64,000 bases of DNA, taken from NCBI GenBank assembly GCA_025544715.1, contig GCA_025544715.1_4109.3. One strand, written 5' to 3'. Position 1 is the stretch's first letter. Every line of letters begins with the position of its first letter. The position numbers and the translations under genes are program-made. The notes under the pieces were generated by a model that saw only the letters and a list, made by a program, of their open reading frames with translations, did not search any database and was not told the origin of the DNA. Below, in pieces: positions 6,869 to 49,504 of the stretch. The stretch is from Escherichia coli. Its GTDB lineage: Bacteria; Pseudomonadota; Gammaproteobacteria; Enterobacterales; Enterobacteriaceae.

Positions 6869-7981
6869 TTAGAACATTTGTTTGATTGCTTCGTAACGAA
6901 GTTCACAAACAAAATCACGAATTTCTGACGTTTCAAGTTCACCATCTTTAACCATTTGCTGAATATCAGGTAATTCAACATCAGTATAACGATCATAAAC
7001 TTTAATAATTAGATCTTCAAGTTCTAAATCAATTTCTTTTCGCAAAATGAAGTATTCCAAAACTTTATAAAGGAATTCTTCACCTCCGTTATTTTTAATA
7101 TTCATATCCAATAAAATATTACCCATTTCAATTGGGGTCTTTTTACGGAATGTTTTGATATCATCACGGAAACGTTTGATATAATTACTAAATTTAACAT
7201 ACTTAACTGGAACTTTAATAGCACCGTTAAGTACTGAATCATTATTTACTTCTTCATTTTCTAGAAGAATAGACCACAGAAAATATGGTTTATATACATC
7301 AGTACAGTTATCTGAAATATAATCAATAAGGTCTAAATTCTTTTTGGTCAAAGATGTATTAAACACCTTTTCGTAATAACCAAATTTACTTAGCGTCTTA
7401 AGGAACTTTGAAGGCTTTTCTTCAGAAAATGCTTTTTCGAATTCCACAAAAACACGGTCAGGAACAAGATGATTTAGCTCACCACTATTGACCATTCCAA
7501 TAGCGAGTTCCTCAGTGCTTTCATGAATAGTAAAGTCTGAATAACGAGTAGCAAATCGAGCAAGACGTAACACGCGTAATGGATCTTCTTTAAAATGGTC
7601 AGAAACATGACGTAGTACCTTGTTCTTGATATCAGCTTTACCACCGTATGGATCGATGTGAATTTGTAGTACTGGATCATACGCAATTGCATTAATTGTA
7701 AGGTCACGGCGATACAAATCTTGTTCTAGTGTTACGCCTTTTGTATCCACTTCAAAGCCACCATATCCAGTACCAGTTTTACGCTCAGTACGGGCTAATG
7801 CGTGTTCATTACCTTCTGGACTTAGATATACTGGGAAATCCTTACCTACTTGCTTATAGCCAATACTTTGCAAGTACTTAAGATCAGATTCGGATGCACC
7901 AACAATGACATAATCTTTGTCTTTTGCACGAAGACCCATTAAACGGTCACGGACGTAACCGCCAACCAAATACTTTTTCAT
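6869..7981 (-). CDS. cca: tRNA nucleotidyltransferase (CCA-adding enzyme / poly(A) polymerase family)
   Basis: Head-domain motifs GGYVRDRLMG...DKDYV and RRDLTINA. Confidence 0.75.
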   Translation of the reverse strand: MKKYLVGGYVRDRLMGLRAKDKDYVIVGASESDLKYLQSIGYKQVGKDFPVYLSPEGNEHALARTERKTGTGYGGFEVDTKGVTLEQDLYRRDLTINAIAYDPVLQIHIDPYGGKADIKNKVLRHVSDHFKEDPLRVLRLARFATRYSDFTIHESTEELAIGMVNSGELNHLVPDRVFVEFEKAFSEEKPSKFLKTLSKFGYYEKVFNTSLTKKNLDLIDYISDNCTDVYKPYFLWSILLENEEVNNDSVLNGAIKVPVKYVKFSNYIKRFRDDIKTFRKKTPIEMGNILLDMNIKNNGGEEFLYKVLEYFILRKEIDLELEDLIIKVYDRYTDVELPDIQQMVKDGELETSEIRDFVCELRYEAIKQMF

Positions 7982-30399: not shown

Positions 30400-33096
30400 T
30401 TACCAGTTTATGGTTCCTGTTTGTGATGGTAGACCGTAGCTAACTGGGAACGATGAACCTGCTGATTCAAGTGAAGCACCAAATATATCTAAACGTGAAC
30501 GTTTTTGTATATTAATTGTTTCGATTTGAATTGCATTAGTTTGAATTGTACCTATCCAAAAAATATTATATGCAGTTGTTCCTGTTTCAGAAATAACATC
30601 AGTAGTTATGTAATAGTTTGCCAATCCTTGGTCCAATTTAACATATACATAAAATGTTGTATTTGCTGGATTAGACTTAATAGTTCTCAAATCAATATTT
30701 GAAACTGGTAGTGAAAATGACTTACCTGAAAGAATAACTGGTGTTTCTTCTGTAAAATATACAATAAACCCTTGAGCAACGTCCTGTGATACTACGTTAA
30801 TTGGGCTACCTTGTGCAGTCCAGTTATTATAGTCTGTAATCGTTGTCCCATATTTTTTGAATGTCATTTTATTTGAGTAATCCATTGGTTCAAAAATTCC
30901 AAAACCAATACCAGGTAACGCTGCTGGTTGACTTCCCTGTTCATAACTGGCATGAGAACCAGTAATTATAAAACTTGTAAATTGTGCAGTTGATTTAGTT
31001 ACATATGCTCTAAATTGATGAGTTGCAGTATTACCTATTGTTGGATGTGATAATGGGTCAGAACCACCAATGAAGTAGAATGAACCTCCATCATATATTG
31101 TCAAACCAACAGAAGAAGATGCAATCGAACCATTTCCAGTTGGTGTAAAGTTATCACCATACGTATTCTCAAGTACTAAACGCTTGAATGTAATAGATGT
31201 AATATTACCAACTCTAGTATTGACGTTAACTTCAGCAATTCTAATATAGTTTCTATAATCATTAGTAATTGTACTCAACATAACAAAAGCTGGAATGTCT
31301 GTTTGTTGTGGAACAAATAGTGTCATATCACGGTATGCTTGTGGTGATAAATTCCAATCACTTAGAACTTTAGCATATTCAGTATTTCTAAAATTGTCCA
31401 GTACTGATTGTGTAACACTTATAATGCCTGTACCATTTAAGTTTTTATCATAGGATAATGATTGTGAATAACGTTGCCCAACCATAAAAATACCACCATT
31501 GGTTGTAACAGTTGACCCAGAAATACTACTAATGAAAATTCTATTATTTGCATTATCATCAACGTTAGCACGTTCAACTGTAGGTTCATAACCTTGTATT
31601 GTTCCTAAAGATAATGATTTAAATGTAAAATTAGGAGTACTTTTATGAACTGCATATGATGGTCTAAATCCACCACTACCTGATGCACGTGAATATTGTT
31701 TAGTACTGTTATCTGGTAGTAATTCTACACCATTAATAAATGAACCAACCGCTGAACCAAAAGACGGGCGAACTATACCACCTTTGAAGTCAGTAGAAAG
31801 TACAGCACGCACATTCAGCATACTATAAACTATTTGAATAGGAAACTTAGCTTTTTGCATAAGCAATGGTTCTGCTAAGTTTGGACATGCAGTACAAAAT
31901 GCTTCACCTGAATTTAAATAAAAATATGAACTGTAAATATTCCTTGCATTTGCATGGTTATACAATGGATCGTTATTTAAAACGTTTCCAGTAGGAACTA
32001 ATGCTGAACCGGTATCAGTAATAACTAATGGTGCTTGGTATGAACCAATATCATTACCTGCATCTAATGTACATTGTTTAGTACTCATGTTGAATACAAA
32101 ACTGTAACTATGTTGTGGTCGTGTATTATAAGTTGCCATTGTGAACCAAGCATCACCATTCATTCTAAAGCGGAAGTTCTGTGTACCTGGCTGCTGTGCA
32201 ACACATAAATCGATTGATGTCATGTAAATCCCAATACCACGTAGATTTTTTGGAACATACACATAAGGTTTATCAGCGATATTTGTTGATGTTACCTGAT
32301 TAGTTATAACCATATTATTTTGTGCAGAATAAGTTGTGTTATAAAATGTTTTAGTAGTCCATCCAGTAACACGAGTTGCGGTATAAGTACCATTACTGAT
32401 ATTATAAACCACTTTAACTACAACTAATTGTAATTGGTTATTTGCATTAAGTACGTTAAAAACATATATAGAACCATCTTCTGCCATCATAGCATATTCA
32501 ATACCACCTTCAGGTGATATATCTGCTTGGTTAACGAAAAAACCAGTATGCAATTTATCATCTAATGTACCATTAGTAATTGATATGAACAAACCATTAG
32601 TACTGTTAGAAGTGTCTACATATCTACCGAGTAAAATATTTGGATCAGTATTGTATAAGCCAATTGCGACTCGATTAGAACCGAAAAAACCAGGCTTGTA
32701 TTGACGACTGGTGTTAATTGTACGGCTCATGTCATCAACTGATAATGCGTTAGCCAAATATGAATAAAATAATCCCTCAACACTACCGTTTGTTCCACTA
32801 CGTAAAAGTACTAGTGTACCATCGTTTTCTAATAAAATTTTATTTCTACGTTGGGTCTGGTTTTCGGATGCACCATTGAAATCTCCAGAAACACCAGCAG
32901 GTAGATAGTTTTGTGAACCATAATGGGAGATTGGCATCATGCTTACTATATCTAGTACTTCATCTCTGGAATACGTGTCTAATTCCATGTTACCATTTGA
33001 ATCAAACACTTGTTCATTTATTCCTTGAATTGTTCTTTTACCATTAACTGTCACATTATGTGTGACATCTAAGCCACCATATATTTTCTTTGACAT
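30400..33096 (-). CDS. Tail-fibre-like large protein (898 aa)
   Basis: Paralog of 27055-29784; TATAAATA-like box upstream; Ser/Thr/Asn/Gly-rich. Confidence 0.5.
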   Translation of the reverse strand: MSKKIYGGLDVTHNVTVNGKRTIQGINEQVFDSNGNMELDTYSRDEVLDIVSMMPISHYGSQNYLPAGVSGDFNGASENQTQRRNKILLENDGTLVLLRSGTNGSVEGLFYSYLANALSVDDMSRTINTSRQYKPGFFGSNRVAIGLYNTDPNILLGRYVDTSNSTNGLFISITNGTLDDKLHTGFFVNQADISPEGGIEYAMMAEDGSIYVFNVLNANNQLQLVVVKVVYNISNGTYTATRVTGWTTKTFYNTTYSAQNNMVITNQVTSTNIADKPYVYVPKNLRGIGIYMTSIDLCVAQQPGTQNFRFRMNGDAWFTMATYNTRPQHSYSFVFNMSTKQCTLDAGNDIGSYQAPLVITDTGSALVPTGNVLNNDPLYNHANARNIYSSYFYLNSGEAFCTACPNLAEPLLMQKAKFPIQIVYSMLNVRAVLSTDFKGGIVRPSFGSAVGSFINGVELLPDNSTKQYSRASGSGGFRPSYAVHKSTPNFTFKSLSLGTIQGYEPTVERANVDDNANNRIFISSISGSTVTTNGGIFMVGQRYSQSLSYDKNLNGTGIISVTQSVLDNFRNTEYAKVLSDWNLSPQAYRDMTLFVPQQTDIPAFVMLSTITNDYRNYIRIAEVNVNTRVGNITSITFKRLVLENTYGDNFTPTGNGSIASSSVGLTIYDGGSFYFIGGSDPLSHPTIGNTATHQFRAYVTKSTAQFTSFIITGSHASYEQGSQPAALPGIGFGIFEPMDYSNKMTFKKYGTTITDYNNWTAQGSPINVVSQDVAQGFIVYFTEETPVILSGKSFSLPVSNIDLRTIKSNPANTTFYVYVKLDQGLANYYITTDVISETGTTAYNIFWIGTIQTNAIQIETINIQKRSRLDIFGASLESAGSSFPVSYGLPSQTGTINW

Positions 33097-33130: not shown

Positions 33131-33138
33131 TATTTATA
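33131..33138 (-). promoter_or_regulatory. T4-late-promoter-like box TATAAATA (minus strand)
   Basis: Exact octamer ~35 nt upstream of start codon 33096. Confidence 0.3.
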
Positions 33139-45548: not shown

Positions 45549-45618
45549 AGTTATATAATCTCAATATAATTAATAACAAAGGAAGTACAACATAATCATC
45601 CTGTTATTTTAATTATTT

Positions 45619-46227
45619 TTATTGGTTTACTGATCCATATCGGATTAGTTCAGTTTTTGTCAAGATAACAACATCTTCACCACGAGAACGGCTAACTTTA
45701 TATAGAACGTCTGGTGGAATTCCATTTGCAGAATATAGTGTAAATAGAAAACCTACTTTAGTTGCCATTTCTTCAGTAAAAGTTGATAGCTGCCTAACTG
45801 ATACAAAAGAATTATCACCGTCTTTAACATTACTTTTAATAGAAATGTTATGAAGTCCCAGTACTGAGCGATTTATCATGTATCGCTTTTCAAAAGCTAC
45901 ACTAAAGAATACCACAGTACATGCTGAGTTGCAATACCTAGAAACAATTAAATTTATACCATTGTCTCTAACGAAGTTTGCCATTTTAATTCCAGCATCA
46001 AAATCACCACCTGGTGATGTGATTGTAATGGTATCATAGTGTTCTTTATCATACAACTCCATCATACGCTTGAGTGATCCATCTGTAATATCTGAGATGA
46101 AATATACATTACGTGTTTCTGGATTGTACTTTATCACATTTTTACGTTCAACACCAGCACTGGCTGGAAAATTTATCAACATCAGAAGCATTACTGCTTG
46201 TACTACCTCAAGCCATAGTCTTTTCAT
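45619..46227 (-). CDS. Secreted ClpP/S49-fold serine peptidase-like protein
   Basis: Signal-peptide-like N-terminus; ITSPGGDFDAG motif. Confidence 0.5.
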   Translation of the reverse strand: MKRLWLEVVQAVMLLMLINFPASAGVERKNVIKYNPETRNVYFISDITDGSLKRMMELYDKEHYDTITITSPGGDFDAGIKMANFVRDNGINLIVSRYCNSACTVVFFSVAFEKRYMINRSVLGLHNISIKSNVKDGDNSFVSVRQLSTFTEEMATKVGFLFTLYSANGIPPDVLYKVSRSRGEDVVILTKTELIRYGSVNQ

Positions 46228-46255
46228 AACAAATCCTTAATTTTGGTTAGGAAGA

Positions 46256-46263
46256 TATAAATA
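46256..46263 (+). promoter_or_regulatory. T4-late-promoter-like box TATAAATA (plus strand)
   Basis: Exact octamer ~150 nt upstream of plus-strand gene start. Confidence 0.25.
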
Positions 46264-46409
46264 ATATAGTACTTAAACACTTAAGTCAAACTTTTTCTGT
46301 ACTTAACTCAAATTTCCCTCATCAGATAATCCCCTTAGTACAATCACTGTGAAGATTCTATCACAAACCCATACCAAATGTAAAGCTTTTTTTATAAGGA
46401 GTGCCCTTC

Positions 46410-48335
46410 ATGGGAAAACCAATTGCAGGACAAGACCAATTTCCATTCACTATAGGTGGATATTTAGTTGATGGTGCAAACATAAAAGGTACAACATATG
46501 TAAAATCGTTGTACATCTACAAACAGCGTTCCTCTGATTTGTATGATTTAATGGATTCAAATGGAACAATATATCGTTTTATTCGTATTGTTGGATATGG
46601 TCAAGATGGTAACAGATTAAATTATTTTACACCAGCAGAAGAAATTGTACCAAATCTGGCGACCAATACATTTTTTATAAAAGTTCAAGATGCTGAAAGA
46701 AATATATTTTCATTTGTTAGATTGTACCAATTAAATAAAATAATAACATTCGATGGTGATTATATTTTTAGAAAAATAGATAAAGATCGTTATCTAAGTG
46801 GTGTGTTAATTCAACCATCATTAACTACATTACAAGTTGGTAAAACCAGTTCACTGCATTGTGTATTCTACCCTAATGATTACTATGATACTGATGGAAC
46901 TTGGTACATAAACGACCATTCTGATATAAATCCAGAAATACCTAGTAAGTATGCTAAAATCATAGAATATAATAAAAATGAAGTATCTATTGAAGGAACA
47001 TCGGTGGGTATGTCAATACTTTCATTTGTTCCTAAAAATAATAAATCCATAATTTCACATTCTCTTATTAACATTGTTAATGAAAATGTAGATATAGAAT
47101 ACATGGTTGCCGAAAGAAGTTCTCCATTTTTTAATCATTATATTGGCAATGAATGGACTATTCAAATAGTCACATATCCGTATGACGCGACTATACAATA
47201 CCCTCTTGAAATCGTAATCGATGCGGAAGTAGATCCTTATATGAAAATTGCCACTACCGAGTTAGTTGGAGTCTCTGAAAATAATAAAATATATACATTT
47301 AAATCAACACTTGAGCCAGATTTAGAATATTATATAGATTATTATCCACAAATCACCTTCACTATGAATGAACCTTACAAATTTAGTGCATTGTTTGAAA
47401 ATAAAATTTGTTTGTCTGGTTGGGAAAGATATTGTGAAAAAATTACCAGTCCTGGAAAGTTATTTTCTATTGATGAATATGTACGTCCAAACACGACTAA
47501 AACATTAAAATATTGGTTAATGAATGATTATGACCAACATATGTATCCAATACGTTCAACTGATGATGAAATTGCCACAATTGATGTAACAACTGGTATA
47601 TTGAGAACTTACGATAAAAGAGGAACAGTATCTTTCTATACAAATTATACTGATATAACTACTGGGGCCATTAGTCAAGATGAATATTTAGTTGGGAAAC
47701 TAACCGTTACAGACGATGTGTACGATTTAATCGAGGTAGAACCATCAAATATACAATATATGTTCCCAAATCAATCACAACAATTCACGTTAACTGGTTA
47801 TAGAGAAGGTTATCCAAATACATCTTTTAATGTTAATGTAAGTATGTTGAACAATTATGCAACTTCTTCAAACAATATCGTCACTATTAACGAAAATACA
47901 TCTAATAACTCTAGATTTAAGATAGTATCAGATTTCAATGGTAATTATAAAAACTTTAGTAGTATATATTCTAATCAAACACCATCTATTATAGTAAAAA
48001 CAAATCCAAATGATTTAACTCCAATACAAAGTATTGATGTTTCTGAAAATGAAATTTTATCTATAAGAATGGCTGAAGAAAATGAAATAGATGATTATAA
48101 AGTTAGTTTTTATCCAAAACCAAATTATTGTGTTAATTATGAACTTGAAATTGTATCATATGATAATACTATAATTGAAATATATGATAAAGAAAATGCA
48201 TTAAAAAACGGGCTAAATTATTATGGTAATATTATGTTATACATAACACCAAAAAGTCCTGGAAGTACCGAGATTGTTGTTAGATCTGTTCATTACCCAG
48301 ATGTACAACAATCTGTAAAAGTAGTTGTTTATTAA
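46410..48335 (+). CDS. Plus-strand large protein (641 aa from ATG 46410), possible virion decoration/adhesin
   Basis: AGGAG RBS 9 nt upstream; N-terminal ~110 aa paralogous to next gene; Asn/Ser/Thr/Tyr-rich. Confidence 0.55.
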   Translation: MGKPIAGQDQFPFTIGGYLVDGANIKGTTYVKSLYIYKQRSSDLYDLMDSNGTIYRFIRIVGYGQDGNRLNYFTPAEEIVPNLATNTFFIKVQDAERNIFSFVRLYQLNKIITFDGDYIFRKIDKDRYLSGVLIQPSLTTLQVGKTSSLHCVFYPNDYYDTDGTWYINDHSDINPEIPSKYAKIIEYNKNEVSIEGTSVGMSILSFVPKNNKSIISHSLINIVNENVDIEYMVAERSSPFFNHYIGNEWTIQIVTYPYDATIQYPLEIVIDAEVDPYMKIATTELVGVSENNKIYTFKSTLEPDLEYYIDYYPQITFTMNEPYKFSALFENKICLSGWERYCEKITSPGKLFSIDEYVRPNTTKTLKYWLMNDYDQHMYPIRSTDDEIATIDVTTGILRTYDKRGTVSFYTNYTDITTGAISQDEYLVGKLTVTDDVYDLIEVEPSNIQYMFPNQSQQFTLTGYREGYPNTSFNVNVSMLNNYATSSNNIVTINENTSNNSRFKIVSDFNGNYKNFSSIYSNQTPSIIVKTNPNDLTPIQSIDVSENEILSIRMAEENEIDDYKVSFYPKPNYCVNYELEIVSYDNTIIEIYDKENALKNGLNYYGNIMLYITPKSPGSTEIVVRSVHYPDVQQSVKVVVY

Positions 48336-48351
48336 TAAGAGGAAATAAAAT

Positions 48352-48729
48352 ATGAAAGCTATAGCAGCACAAGGTAAATTACCATTCAATATCGGCGGCT
48401 TTTGTGTAACCGCAGCTAATATAAACGGTGAATTGAAATATAACTTGAACATCTTTAATCAACGTTCTAGTTGTGTTTACGATCTTATCGACACTGATTT
48501 TAATGTTTATCGTTTTGTAACTATAACAAGTTTTGATAAAGATAAAATCAGATTAGACGCATCTAAAACTGCACTAGAGATTGCACCAACTTTAGCAAAA
48601 AATACTTTTTGTATTAAGATTGATGATAGTGCATTTGCCGAATCATTCCAGTTTCATAAAATTAAATTGAGTACTGGAGAAATGAAATATCACCCTTGGG
48701 ATTTGTATTATTGTAACATCCCTGGTTAA
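48352..48729 (+). CDS. Plus-strand protein (125 aa), paralog of N-terminal domain of 46410-48335
   Basis: AAGAGGA RBS; shared blocks PFxIGG..., RSSxxYDL, YRFxxI. Confidence 0.55.
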   Translation: MKAIAAQGKLPFNIGGFCVTAANINGELKYNLNIFNQRSSCVYDLIDTDFNVYRFVTITSFDKDKIRLDASKTALEIAPTLAKNTFCIKIDDSAFAESFQFHKIKLSTGEMKYHPWDLYYCNIPG

Positions 48730-48730
48730 C

Positions 48731-48760
48731 AAAAAAGGAGCCACAAGGCTCCTTTTTTTT
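48731..48760. terminator. Bidirectional terminator between convergent plus and minus genes
   Basis: Hairpin GGAGCC-ACAA-GGCTCC flanked by A6 and T8. Confidence 0.7.
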
Positions 48761-49016
48761 ATTCTACAGTATTAAGCTTCTGACAAATCATGTCAGCTTC
48801 TACTCGGTCTTTATAATAAATGGTAAATCCAAATCTACTTGTTACCCTTTTCTCACTACGGTGTATACAGTTTACAATATAGTACTTATTATTTTGTGCA
48901 GAAAAACGAACTTCATAATTTCGAAAATAAGTATTAGGTTCATCTATAGCAACTATATATAACATAAAAATGAAAAGCACTATTATTAGAAAAGCAATAA
49001 TAATTATTACTGTCAT
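48759..49016 (-). CDS. Small membrane protein (85 aa)
   Basis: N-terminal hydrophobic helix. Confidence 0.4.
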   Translation of the reverse strand: MTVIIIIAFLIIVLFIFMLYIVAIDEPNTYFRNYEVRFSAQNNKYYIVNCIHRSEKRVTSRFGFTIYYKDRVEADMICQKLNTVE

Positions 49017-49504
49017 TTATCAAGACCCTTATCATAAATGCAATTAACAATAATTCCAGCATCTTCCAGTACTTTAATAGCTTCTGGTGGTGTACGAGGA
49101 TAATTTTTGAGATAAATTACACGTGAAATACCACTACCCGCAATCAACTTAGAACAAGTATAACATGGTTGTAGTGTTGTGTAAAGAGTAGCACCTTGAC
49201 GTTCAGTAGGAGAACTATAGAGTAAAGCGTTCATTTCGGCATGGATTTCATGAATATTACTCCACTCATGATGTTGATGCTTTGCTTCATCACTAACCCA
49301 GTCTTGAAAAGACCCATCATTTACTAAGTGTTGATTCACGTCACAGCAATTTGGTTGTTTTGATGGAGTACCATTGTATCCAGTACTCAATACTCGATTA
49401 TTTTTAACAATAACACAACCAACTTTTTGTGAAATACATTTACTTTCCTCAGCAACTACTTCTGCTATCTTCAACCAAGTCGTATGTTTCATTATAAGCT
49501 CCAA
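49013..49504 (-). CDS. cd: dCMP deaminase
   Basis: HAEMNAL...PCYTCSKLIAGSGISRVIY and N-terminal VGCVIVKNNRVLSTGYNG. Confidence 0.8.
   Translation of the reverse strand: MELIMKHTTWLKIAEVVAEESKCISQKVGCVIVKNNRVLSTGYNGTPSKQPNCCDVNQHLVNDGSFQDWVSDEAKHQHHEWSNIHEIHAEMNALLYSSPTERQGATLYTTLQPCYTCSKLIAGSGISRVIYLKNYPRTPPEAIKVLEDAGIIVNCIYDKGLDK

Follow-up and report, generated by a model that had tools for sequence, protein, structure and literature searches.

What are two plus-strand genes doing in a phage genome segment that is otherwise coded on the minus strand? The window, by which we mean the whole 64,000-nucleotide stretch of DNA analysed, belongs to an Asteriusvirus (nucleotide identity ~96% to coliphages 121Q and PBECO4 over 24 kb), and judged by its sequence the source genome is that of a Rak2-like jumbo coliphage. 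A first-pass annotation described the two genes as the sole convincing plus-strand genes of the window and offered two explanations for them, a late-expressed decoration or adhesin module and a horizontally acquired cassette. Their singularity was confirmed: every other plus-strand ORF of at least 100 amino acids overlaps a longer minus-strand ORF, and positions 1-2290, for which no ORF had been listed, form an open minus-strand frame of at least 740 amino acids running off the window edge. The coordinates assigned to the two genes, from ATG to stop, were also correct (Table 1), as was the description of their ribosome-binding sites as strong. The large gene has AAGGAG at 46396-46401, with a spacer of 8 nt to its ATG, and the small gene has GAGGA at 48339-48343. 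An alternative start of the large gene at GTG 46401 was rejected because it lies inside the ribosome-binding site and 26 of 26 homologues begin with MGKPIA.

Table 1. Features of the plus-strand island, in window coordinates
Feature	Position	Strand	Remarks
TATAAATA box	46256-46263	+	T4-type late-promoter motif, 147 nt 5' of the large-gene ATG
Candidate sigma-70-like promoter	46261-46289	-	TTGACT-17-TATTAT, 10 of 12 consensus matches; consensus match only
Leader	46264-46409	+	146 nt
Large gene	46410-48335	+	641 aa; NCBI WP_262845365.1, 'hypothetical protein'
N-terminal domain of the large protein	46410-46784	+	~125 aa; proposed virion anchor; paralogous to the small protein
GTACAACA, left copy	46489-46496	+	8-nt direct repeat at the 121Q deletion junction
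Beta-sandwich (Ig-like) domains, predicted	46791-48332	+	about five, aa 128-641
GTACAACA, right copy	48303-48310	+	8-nt direct repeat at the 121Q deletion junction
Small gene	48352-48729	+	125 aa, N-terminal domain only; orthologue of 121Q gp471, PBECO4 AGC34778, phAPEC6 gp347
Intrinsic terminator	48731-48758		symmetric, A6-GGAGCC-ACAA-GGCTCC-T9

The two products share a paralogous N-terminal domain, as the first-pass annotation had claimed, with 47 of 109 residues identical (43%, E = 4e-25). The small protein matches phrog_33171 over its full length (E = 3.3e-88), and residues 1-122 of the large protein match phrog_33171 (E = 3.3e-21) and phrog_10468 (E = 2e-18); both proteins hit both families, which carry the label 'virion structural protein'. 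The domain family is small, uncurated and without a Pfam model. We found 91 clusters of it among 1.84 billion proteins, in proteins of 102-1859 amino acids, and in 91 of the 91 library clusters the match begins at residues 1-13. Within the family, 35 of the 40 invariant columns fall in residues 1-126, and mean pairwise identity is 0.79 for this domain versus 0.42-0.61 for the C-terminal domains. When the large protein is compared with its orthologues, the N-terminal domain is 62-67% identical and residues 128-641 are 31-34% identical, the latter being the region that evolves fastest in the neighbourhood. AF2 predicts a compact beta core (residues 16-114 of the small protein, pLDDT around 90) and, ahead of it, a disordered N-terminal arm of 15 residues. 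The arm is strongly conserved and contains MGKPIAGQxQFP, and its invariant residues M1-Q10 have pLDDT below 50. A structure search with the anchor domain returned no structural match. In Rak2-like jumbo phages the domain appears to serve universally to anchor Ig-like displays, and we infer that it docks onto the assembled virion.

Downstream of the anchor, the large protein is predicted to consist of about five Ig-like domains. Its AF2 model is all-beta and multi-domain (mean pLDDT 83.6), and Foldseek against the PDB returned NUP210 Ig repeats, the S-layer proteins SbsB, SbsC and EA1, and cadherins, over 560-757 aligned columns. A Big_2 domain occurs in 13 of the 26 homologues, and the family profile for residues 130-220 matches bglH (chain 7quz, E = 3e-4). 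An Ig-like domain search was among the checks that the first-pass annotation had proposed. The large protein itself matched no Pfam family at E <= 0.1, Ig families included, and the gathering threshold of Pfam Big_2 (PF02368) was reached by its homologues only; NCBIfam gave no match for either protein, and comparison of hhalign sub-profiles detected no repeats among the five C-terminal domains (best pair D4-D5, E = 0.0024, probability 12%). Since there is neither a Pfam Ig match nor a significant repeat relationship, the Ig-like call for four of the five domains rests on predicted structure. The C-terminal part had also been described as a low-complexity region rich in Asn, Ser and Thr. In the C-terminal third Asn (13.9% versus 6.4%) and Ser (10.9% versus 7.2%) are indeed enriched, but Thr is not, and the region is predicted to form folded beta domains, with pLDDT mostly above 80, instead of low-complexity sequence. 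No Ig-like domain was detected in the small protein by Pfam or AF2, despite the 'Ig domain' annotation in 121Q.

Evidence for association with the particle comes from homologues. The small protein shares 98% identity with phAPEC6 gp347, which virion mass spectrometry detected through 8 unique peptides at a coverage of 75.2%, peptide coverage being only a rough proxy for abundance (Table 1 of PMC7247149). CBB_112, a syntenic protein comprising the N-terminal domain and Big_2, was also detected in published virion mass spectrometry. Going by gp347, the small protein is a well-detected virion component. The large protein would be incorporated into the virion as well.

The genes had been reported to follow a TATAAATA box, and this box proved to be one of only three copies in the window, where 13.0 +/- 3.9 would be expected (4-fold depletion). 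As the motif is avoided in the window, its position at 46256 is meaningful. Alignment showed that the box is identical in 121Q, PBECO4 and phAPEC6, in each of which it is present once per locus (loci of 3.6-10.7 kb). A second window copy, at 33131 on the minus strand, lies upstream of the orthologue of phAPEC6 gp323c, a virion protein, bringing to two of three the copies that precede genes with virion-protein orthologues; the distance from box to ATG is 27 nt there and much longer, 147 nt, at the large gene, which weighs against the box as the promoter of the island. For Rak2-like phages PMC5259590 describes an ATAAATA late motif, reported from CBB and GAP32. By its box, the island would constitute a T4-type late transcription unit, with promoter activity at the box and late timing of expression.

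The candidate sigma-70-like promoter overlaps the late box within a stretch that is 100% conserved and faces the divergent ClpP-like protease gene at 45619-46227. The first ~52 nt of the leader (to 46315) are invariant in four phages, and the remainder is common to 121Q only. The leader has no significant RNA structure (fold z = 0.06), and Rfam gave nothing for it at gathering score, the sub-threshold matches falling only on the terminator; the idea of a riboswitch or other structured leader was therefore dropped. The bidirectional terminator proposed for the 3' end of the island was confirmed as a symmetric 12-pair stem with an A-run on one side and a T-run on the other, common to the island and a convergent 85-aa gene (48759-49016) that ends at 48759. 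It is kept in 121Q, PBECO4 and phAPEC6. As a separate observation, the annotation of PBECO4 places a sigma factor elsewhere in the genome.

The second explanation, a horizontally acquired cassette or moron inserted in reverse into the early-gene block, draws on the absence of the large gene from 22 of 22 sequenced close relatives in the phage collection, on the lack of any tblastn match for the C-terminal 475 amino acids of its product in 50,697 phage records, and on a slightly low GC content (0.288 versus a mean of 0.337). The composition of the genes is nevertheless ordinary. Synonymous codon usage relative to the window gives z = 0.25 for the large gene and 0.10 for the small one, the corresponding z values for GC are -1.4 and -0.6, and foreignness was rejected because GC, GC3 and synonymous codon scores all lie within the range of 44 minus-strand genes. 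That the block contains no copy of CAGTACTG, as had been noted, is true but not significant; the gap over the island, 3,889 nt, ranks third by size among 35 gaps (mean 1,804), and was discarded as a signal. Homologous genes occupy the same place in the same orientation in RaK2, CBB, A4 and several metagenomic Rak2-like contigs. The locus adjoins the dCMP deaminase gene in RaK2, CBB, A4 and the loci labelled L003, L009, L010 and L012, and its inverted orientation is kept across Rak2-like phages. Orthologues of ~640 amino acids stand beside the dCMP deaminase gene in distant Rak2-like contigs, and the promoter and terminator are common to relatives that carry the small gene alone. Syntenic genes in relatives, ordinary composition and a CAGTACTG gap within chance are the observations that the first-pass annotation had itself set down as counting against acquisition. 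Same-locus homologues across Rak2-like phages, together with typical codon usage, indicate a conserved variable late-gene locus and not an acquired cassette; in Rak2-like phages it holds one to four paralogues, each opening with the N-terminal domain and differing in its C-terminal array. Nor does the switch of orientation hint at acquisition, for it is simply the usual placement of late genes inside early regions in a T4-like genome layout.

The only unusual point of the locus is that the large gene is gone from every sequenced close relative. It is missing altogether from PBECO4-type phages, where no similarity could be detected between a 113-nt PBECO4-specific spacer and any large-gene allele. 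In 121Q a 43-aa stub remains, which keeps 87 nt from the start of the large gene and ~33 nt from its end at 95-97% identity. Alignment against 121Q identified the pair of GTACAACA repeats, the only two copies in the island, of which 121Q keeps one, without the 1,814 bp between them; the other direct DNA repeats in the island are short chance-level families only. The two gene ends in the stub and the clean 8-nt microhomology junction indicate loss, not gain, and the deletion between the repeats makes the large gene ancestral and dispensable. Dispensability concerns the large gene only and is demonstrated by this natural deletion and by the absence of the gene from about 20 viable isolates. The cassette reading is largely refuted by the deletion junction in 121Q and by synteny, and we consider it most improbable. 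Repeated loss among relatives, along with the interrupted copy at the same locus in phage A4, might instead suggest that the large ORF is decaying or has lost its function and is tolerated as a remnant in one genome. An uninterrupted frame of 641 codons in 29% GC DNA, a strong ribosome-binding site, a confident multi-domain fold and full-length collinear orthologues of 631-645 amino acids in at least 15 other contigs make such decay very unlikely.

We favour the reading, at a probability of about 0.7, that the locus encodes a late-expressed surface-protein pair of a Rak2-like jumbo phage, a Hoc/pb10-like accessory module at a conserved position. Transcription would run against the surrounding early and middle genes from the T4-type late promoter TATAAATA and yield one message covering both genes, which would thus be co-transcribed, ending at the terminator at 48731. 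The N-terminal domain of both products would dock on the assembled virion. There the 125-aa protein would be the anchor domain alone, and the Ig-like part of the 641-aa protein would stand out from the particle as a flexible rod of ~20 nm. This Ig-like rod may give weak multivalent binding to glycans, host-surface or environmental, in which case the large protein would act as an adhesin. The module is accessory, 121Q having lost the large gene through the 8-nt microhomology deletion. The late decoration or adhesin module of the first-pass annotation is supported in this by the late-promoter box, the mass spectrometry of gp347 and CBB_112, and the Ig-like string, with which late timing and an adhesin role would be in keeping.

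Several structures seen by cryo-EM bear on the docking site. In phAPEC6 the unassigned structures are a set of 12 elongated decoration proteins located at collar and distal tail, rings of fibres on the sheath at three levels, and capsid fibres (PMC7247149); long fibres lie around the capsid and sheath of 121Q (PMC5646251), and the capsids of both phages have an unassigned hexamer-centre density (PMC7247149, PMC5646251). We tentatively consider, as a possibility somewhat on the unlikely side, that the N-terminal domain family is an external capsid protein of T=28 Asteriusvirus heads, either the 'fibre-anchoring' density at the hexamer centre of phAPEC6 or the two-fold ridge protein of 121Q. If so, the locus beside dCMP deaminase would be a swappable cassette array, in which the bare 125-aa anchor fills most sites, paralogues with Ig-like arrays of 200 to ~1,850 amino acids are shown at the same sites, and gene gain or loss at one locus re-dresses the entire capsid surface. 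The same family with the same timing might instead bind sheath rings or the collar, its products decorating the tail or forming the base of the 'hairy' whiskers. The collar and tail decorations and sheath fibre rings of phAPEC6 would suit such tail anchoring, as would the 121Q fibres, which surround the sheath as well as the capsid, and family members of up to 1,551-1,859 amino acids. The 641-aa protein, however, would span only ~20 nm, and a capsid site of high copy number would account at least equally well for the high coverage of the 14-kDa protein. We rate tail anchoring, like the capsid reading, as somewhat on the unlikely side. The long whiskers of CBB and phAPEC6 themselves are unlikely as a product of the locus, because the CBB locus protein has only 218 amino acids and the CBB hairs measure ~119 nm. 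A C-terminal Big_2 domain can occur on tail tube proteins of the lambda type, and RefSeq/GenBank name the homologues in RaK2, K64-1 and CBB 'major tail protein', which would make the proteins tail-tube-type components; the non-Ig domain was examined for a tail-tube fold and did not show one, and we find this identity scarcely credible.

T4 Hoc, the highly immunogenic outer capsid protein, is late and non-essential and combines a virion-binding domain with a row of several Ig-like domains; weak multivalent adhesion to glycans is the proposed mode of action of both Hoc and T5 pb10. As a surface-protein module, the locus resembles Hoc in encoding what would be a late, non-essential protein with one virion-binding domain and a projecting Ig-like string, here predicted. 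It differs in that the anchor is C-terminal in Hoc and N-terminal in the large protein, and in that the anchor domain here also exists as a stand-alone, apparently abundant virion protein and as one to four tandem paralogues. T5 pb10 is likewise dispensable, and its capsid-binding domain stands at the N-terminus, ahead of its Ig-like domain(s), as the proposed anchor does in the large protein. Searches of Pfam, NCBIfam and PDB sequences found no homology to Hoc or pb10. True homologues, through phrog_10468 and phrog_33171, are RaK2 gp496, CBB_112 and the GAP32 'Ig domain-containing structural protein', which share with the window the N-terminal domain, the dCMP deaminase locus and the inverted orientation, and carry at most one Ig-like domain (125-218 aa) versus about five predicted in the large protein. 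The Big_2 displays on phage structural proteins described by Fraser et al. (2006), as cited in PMC5259590, are likewise accessory and patchy among close relatives; unlike those cases as cited there, the display here is on a dedicated anchor-domain family, with no essential capsid or tail carrier and no frameshifting.

The locus is an ordinary, expected kind of accessory virion gene. It offers a concrete candidate for the surface densities and fibres left unassigned in the cryo-EM studies of phAPEC6 and 121Q, and the intact large gene here and the clean deletion in 121Q form a natural comparison for a Hoc-like fibre role in a jumbo phage. Three annotations are corrected: the 'major tail protein' of the RaK2, K64-1 and CBB homologues, the 'Ig domain' of 121Q gp471, and 121Q gp472, which is the deletion stub and not a gene.

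The 24-kb stretch around the island, a plus-strand pair formed by a large gene (641 aa) and a small gene (125 aa), is 96% identical at the nucleotide level over 91-92% of its length to the Escherichia phages 121Q and PBECO4 and some 20 further Asteriusvirus isolates, jumbo myoviruses of the Rak2-like kind and ~350 kb in size. NCBI has the large protein solely as WP_262845365.1, 'hypothetical protein [Escherichia coli]', from a single 68-kb contig, and one further copy at 90% identity or more lies on a 5.5-kb Logan contig. Both genes begin where the first-pass annotation had placed them, each behind a ribosome-binding site (RBS). GTG 46401, an alternative start of the large gene in the ORF listing, falls inside the RBS and was rejected. 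As that annotation had also held, these are the sole credible plus-strand genes in the window, every other plus-strand ORF of at least 100 aa overlapping a longer minus-strand ORF. The seemingly empty left end of the window is taken up by a frame on the minus strand, at least 740 aa long, which continues beyond the window edge.

The small protein has a full-length match to phrog_33171, 'virion structural protein' (E = 3e-88), and is 98% identical to phAPEC6 gp347. In the published phAPEC6 virion proteome this 14.1-kDa protein is represented by 8 unique peptides and 75.2% coverage, above the 68.0% given for the tail sheath protein in the accessible part of the table (PMC7247149). The N-terminal domain said to be common to both island proteins (here denoted N-domain) was recovered with 47/109 identities (E = 4e-25); in the large protein it spans residues 1-125 and matches phrog_33171 (E = 3e-21) and phrog_10468 (E = 2e-18). 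A profile search of 1.84 billion representative proteins returned just 91 clusters with protein lengths of 102-1,859 aa, and in all 91 the match begins at the extreme N-terminus; the family is an uncurated one of putative anchor domains. Among the ~640-aa orthologues mean pairwise identity is 0.79 in the N-domain versus 0.42-0.61 in the five C-terminal domains, and 35 of the 40 invariant columns of the homologue alignment fall within residues 1-126. The invariant M1-G2-K3-P4-I5-A6 and Q10 sit in an arm that is disordered in the AF2 model. A conserved disordered arm and a conserved small domain carrying variable displayed domains are the pattern we would expect of a docking module with a conserved partner.

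The AF2 model of the large protein, built on a 26-sequence alignment, is all-beta and multi-domain (mean pLDDT 83.6), and we read about five predicted domains beyond the N-domain, roughly at residues 128-226, 229-337, 345-436, 438-532 and 538-641. A Foldseek search of the PDB aligned 560-757 columns of this model to Ig-like-repeat proteins, including NUP210, the S-layer proteins SbsB, SbsC and EA1, cadherins and a virion chain of phage SU10; the low TM-scores are in keeping with a flexible, beads-on-a-string chain. The window's own large protein matches no Pfam family above threshold; Big_2 is matched by 13 of its 26 homologues (best E = 5e-10), and over residues 130-220 the family profile hits the bglH chain 7quz (E = 3e-4). 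Pairwise comparison of sub-profiles of the five C-terminal domains gave no significant similarity, indicating that the array did not arise by recent internal repetition. The description of this region as low-complexity and Asn/Ser/Thr-rich stood for Asn and Ser; Thr is not enriched, and ordered beta domains are predicted in place of low complexity.

Features of the island and gene content of the homologous locus in Rak2-like phages and metagenomic contigs (L003, L009, L010, L012)
Feature	Position	Strand	Detail
TATAAATA box	46256-46263	+	candidate late promoter
Large gene start	ATG 46410	+	AAGGAG RBS 46396-46401; MGKPIA start in 26/26 homologues
Small gene start	ATG 48352	+	GAGGA 48339-48343 ahead
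121Q deletion-junction octamer GTACAACA	46489-46496 and 48303-48310		exactly two copies in island
Terminator	48731-48758	both	12-pair stem, A-run and T-run at its sides
RaK2 locus			one gene, gp496, 212 aa
CBB locus			one gene, CBB_112, 218 aa; virion MS, 4 peptides
Phage A4 locus			three N-domain copies: interrupted one, 722 aa, 124 aa
L003 locus			four genes: 391, 442, 639, 606 aa; N-domain at start of all
L009 locus			637, 162 and 162 aa
L010 locus			299 and 638 aa
L012 locus			644 aa

The box noted ahead of the large gene is one of just 3 copies of TATAAATA in the window, where shuffles predict 13.0 +/- 3.9; this 4-fold depletion indicates that the octamer is avoided. No base of the box or of the next 52 nt varies among four phages that differ by 4-11% in the flanking genes, and the box is the sole copy within each of three relatives' loci. 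A second copy, on the minus strand at 33131-33138, comes after a terminator hairpin and 27 nt ahead of the ATG of ORF 30400-33096 (898 aa, minus strand). This ORF is 99% identical to phAPEC6 gp323c, another virion protein detected by MS (PMC7247149), indicating that a late gene also lies in the 'early' orientation. Together with the ATAAATA-type late motif reported for CBB and GAP32 (PMC5259590), the conservation of the box and its second copy at a virion gene make late transcription from 46256 a well-supported inference from sequence. A sigma-70-like promoter match (TTGACT-17-TATTAT, 46289-46261, minus strand) faces the divergent ClpP-like gene and overlaps the box; it may lie behind part of the conservation of this stretch, and the arrangement suggests back-to-back early and late promoters on a common A/T-rich core. 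In the 146-nt leader neither significant structure nor an Rfam match was found. At the end of the pair the bidirectional terminator was confirmed as a symmetric stem whose flanking A-run and T-run allow it to serve both convergent units.

Throughout the Rak2-like group the locus has a ClpP-like protease or genes of NAD salvage on one flank and a small ORF with dCMP deaminase on the other, and N-domain-family genes are inverted there; the synteny check found such homologues at the same site in all seven relatives of the table. The first N-domain gene of the phage A4 locus (L006 6998-7501) is annotated as two ORFs of 65 and 43 aa covered by one tblastn alignment, probably a pseudogene or sequencing error; TATAAATA stands at 7561, just ahead of the 722-aa gene, and the 124-aa paralogue also lies downstream of the split gene. 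PBECO4 has a second N-domain paralogue, gp368 (L008 8001-9155; 384 aa, phrog_10468), a lone inverted gene in a long minus-strand block; AATAAATA stands 38 nt ahead of it, and CAGTACT beyond that. The inverted genes across relatives and gp368 indicate that the orientation switch is the usual arrangement for late genes that lie within early regions of these T4-like genomes.

A horizontally acquired cassette had been offered as an alternative to a late decoration or adhesin module. Coverage of the 2.5-kb query stays at or below 29% in all 22 close relatives from the phage collection, and tblastn of the large protein against 50,697 phage records matched only the first ~165 residues in any. In the nearest intact orthologue (L009) the N-domain is 66% and the C-terminal part 34% identical, the lowest value in a neighbourhood whose flanking proteins range from 48% to 90%. 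In 121Q, window positions 46410-46496 are joined directly to 48303 onward, 1,814 bp being absent, so that the common ancestor with the window phage had the large gene, and its loss in 121Q came about through a microhomology-mediated deletion. 121Q gp472 ('hypothetical protein', 43 aa, L001 5154-5285) consists of the large gene's first 29 codons followed by an out-of-frame run into the small-gene start; it is a deletion stub, not a gene. PBECO4-type phages have the promoter and first 52 nt of the leader in common with the window phage, then an unrelated 113-nt spacer and the small gene's RBS. Checked against the window, codon usage is typical (z = 0.25 for the large gene, 0.10 for the small) and the GC of both genes is inside the native range. 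Synteny, the 121Q loss and native composition refute recent horizontal acquisition and show that the large gene is an ancestral, dispensable, fast-evolving accessory gene. The island also coincides with a mosaic boundary: the left flank (45600-46315) is nearer 121Q (ClpP-like protein 97.5% versus 89.6% to PBECO4) and the right flank (48330-49100) nearer PBECO4 (85-aa protein 95% versus 75% to 121Q; dCMP deaminase 98.7% versus 93.7%).

The late decoration or adhesin reading is supported by the late box, virion MS of gp347 and CBB_112 and the predicted Ig-like domains, and a Hoc/pb10-like accessory surface module is our best reading of the island, with a probability of roughly 70%. One message late in infection would yield both proteins, whose N-domain and conserved arm would dock on the finished particle; the 125-aa form would decorate the particle without any display, and the 641-aa form would project about five Ig-like domains, roughly 20 nm, for weak multivalent adhesion. 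In phAPEC6 and 121Q, cryo-EM places a protein of unassigned identity, with a fibre emerging, at each hexamer centre and more unassigned decoration on the ridges of the capsid, the collar and the distal tail (PMC7247149, PMC5646251), all candidate docking sites, capsid and tail alike. With the large protein a known kind of phage protein gains a larger member, valuable chiefly as a candidate for jumbo-phage surface structures left unassigned and for the natural presence/absence pair of window phage and 121Q. RefSeq/GenBank label the locus homologues of RaK2, K64-1, CBB, fHe-Yen9-04 and XbC2 'major tail protein', which was unsupported by fold or family searches; for the RaK2, K64-1 and CBB homologues the label probably derives from the Big_2 domain. 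This locus is an unlikely source of the very long CBB whiskers (~119 nm), given that the CBB protein there has only 218 aa. An 'Ig domain' note on the 121Q small protein was unsupported by fold or family searches.

The palindromic octamer CAGTACTG occurs 36 times in the window versus 0.79 expected from dinucleotide shuffles (for example at 654, 2709, 45859, 49748 and 63782). Thirty copies lie inside minus-strand ORFs, in line with the coding fraction, with skewed codon phases (2/18/10), and the flanks of the 36 sites have no conserved context; it may serve as a binding or modification site or be linked to restriction. The island does lack the octamer, and the first-pass annotation was right to call this weak: the gap there, 3,889 nt, is only the third largest of 35 (mean 1,804).
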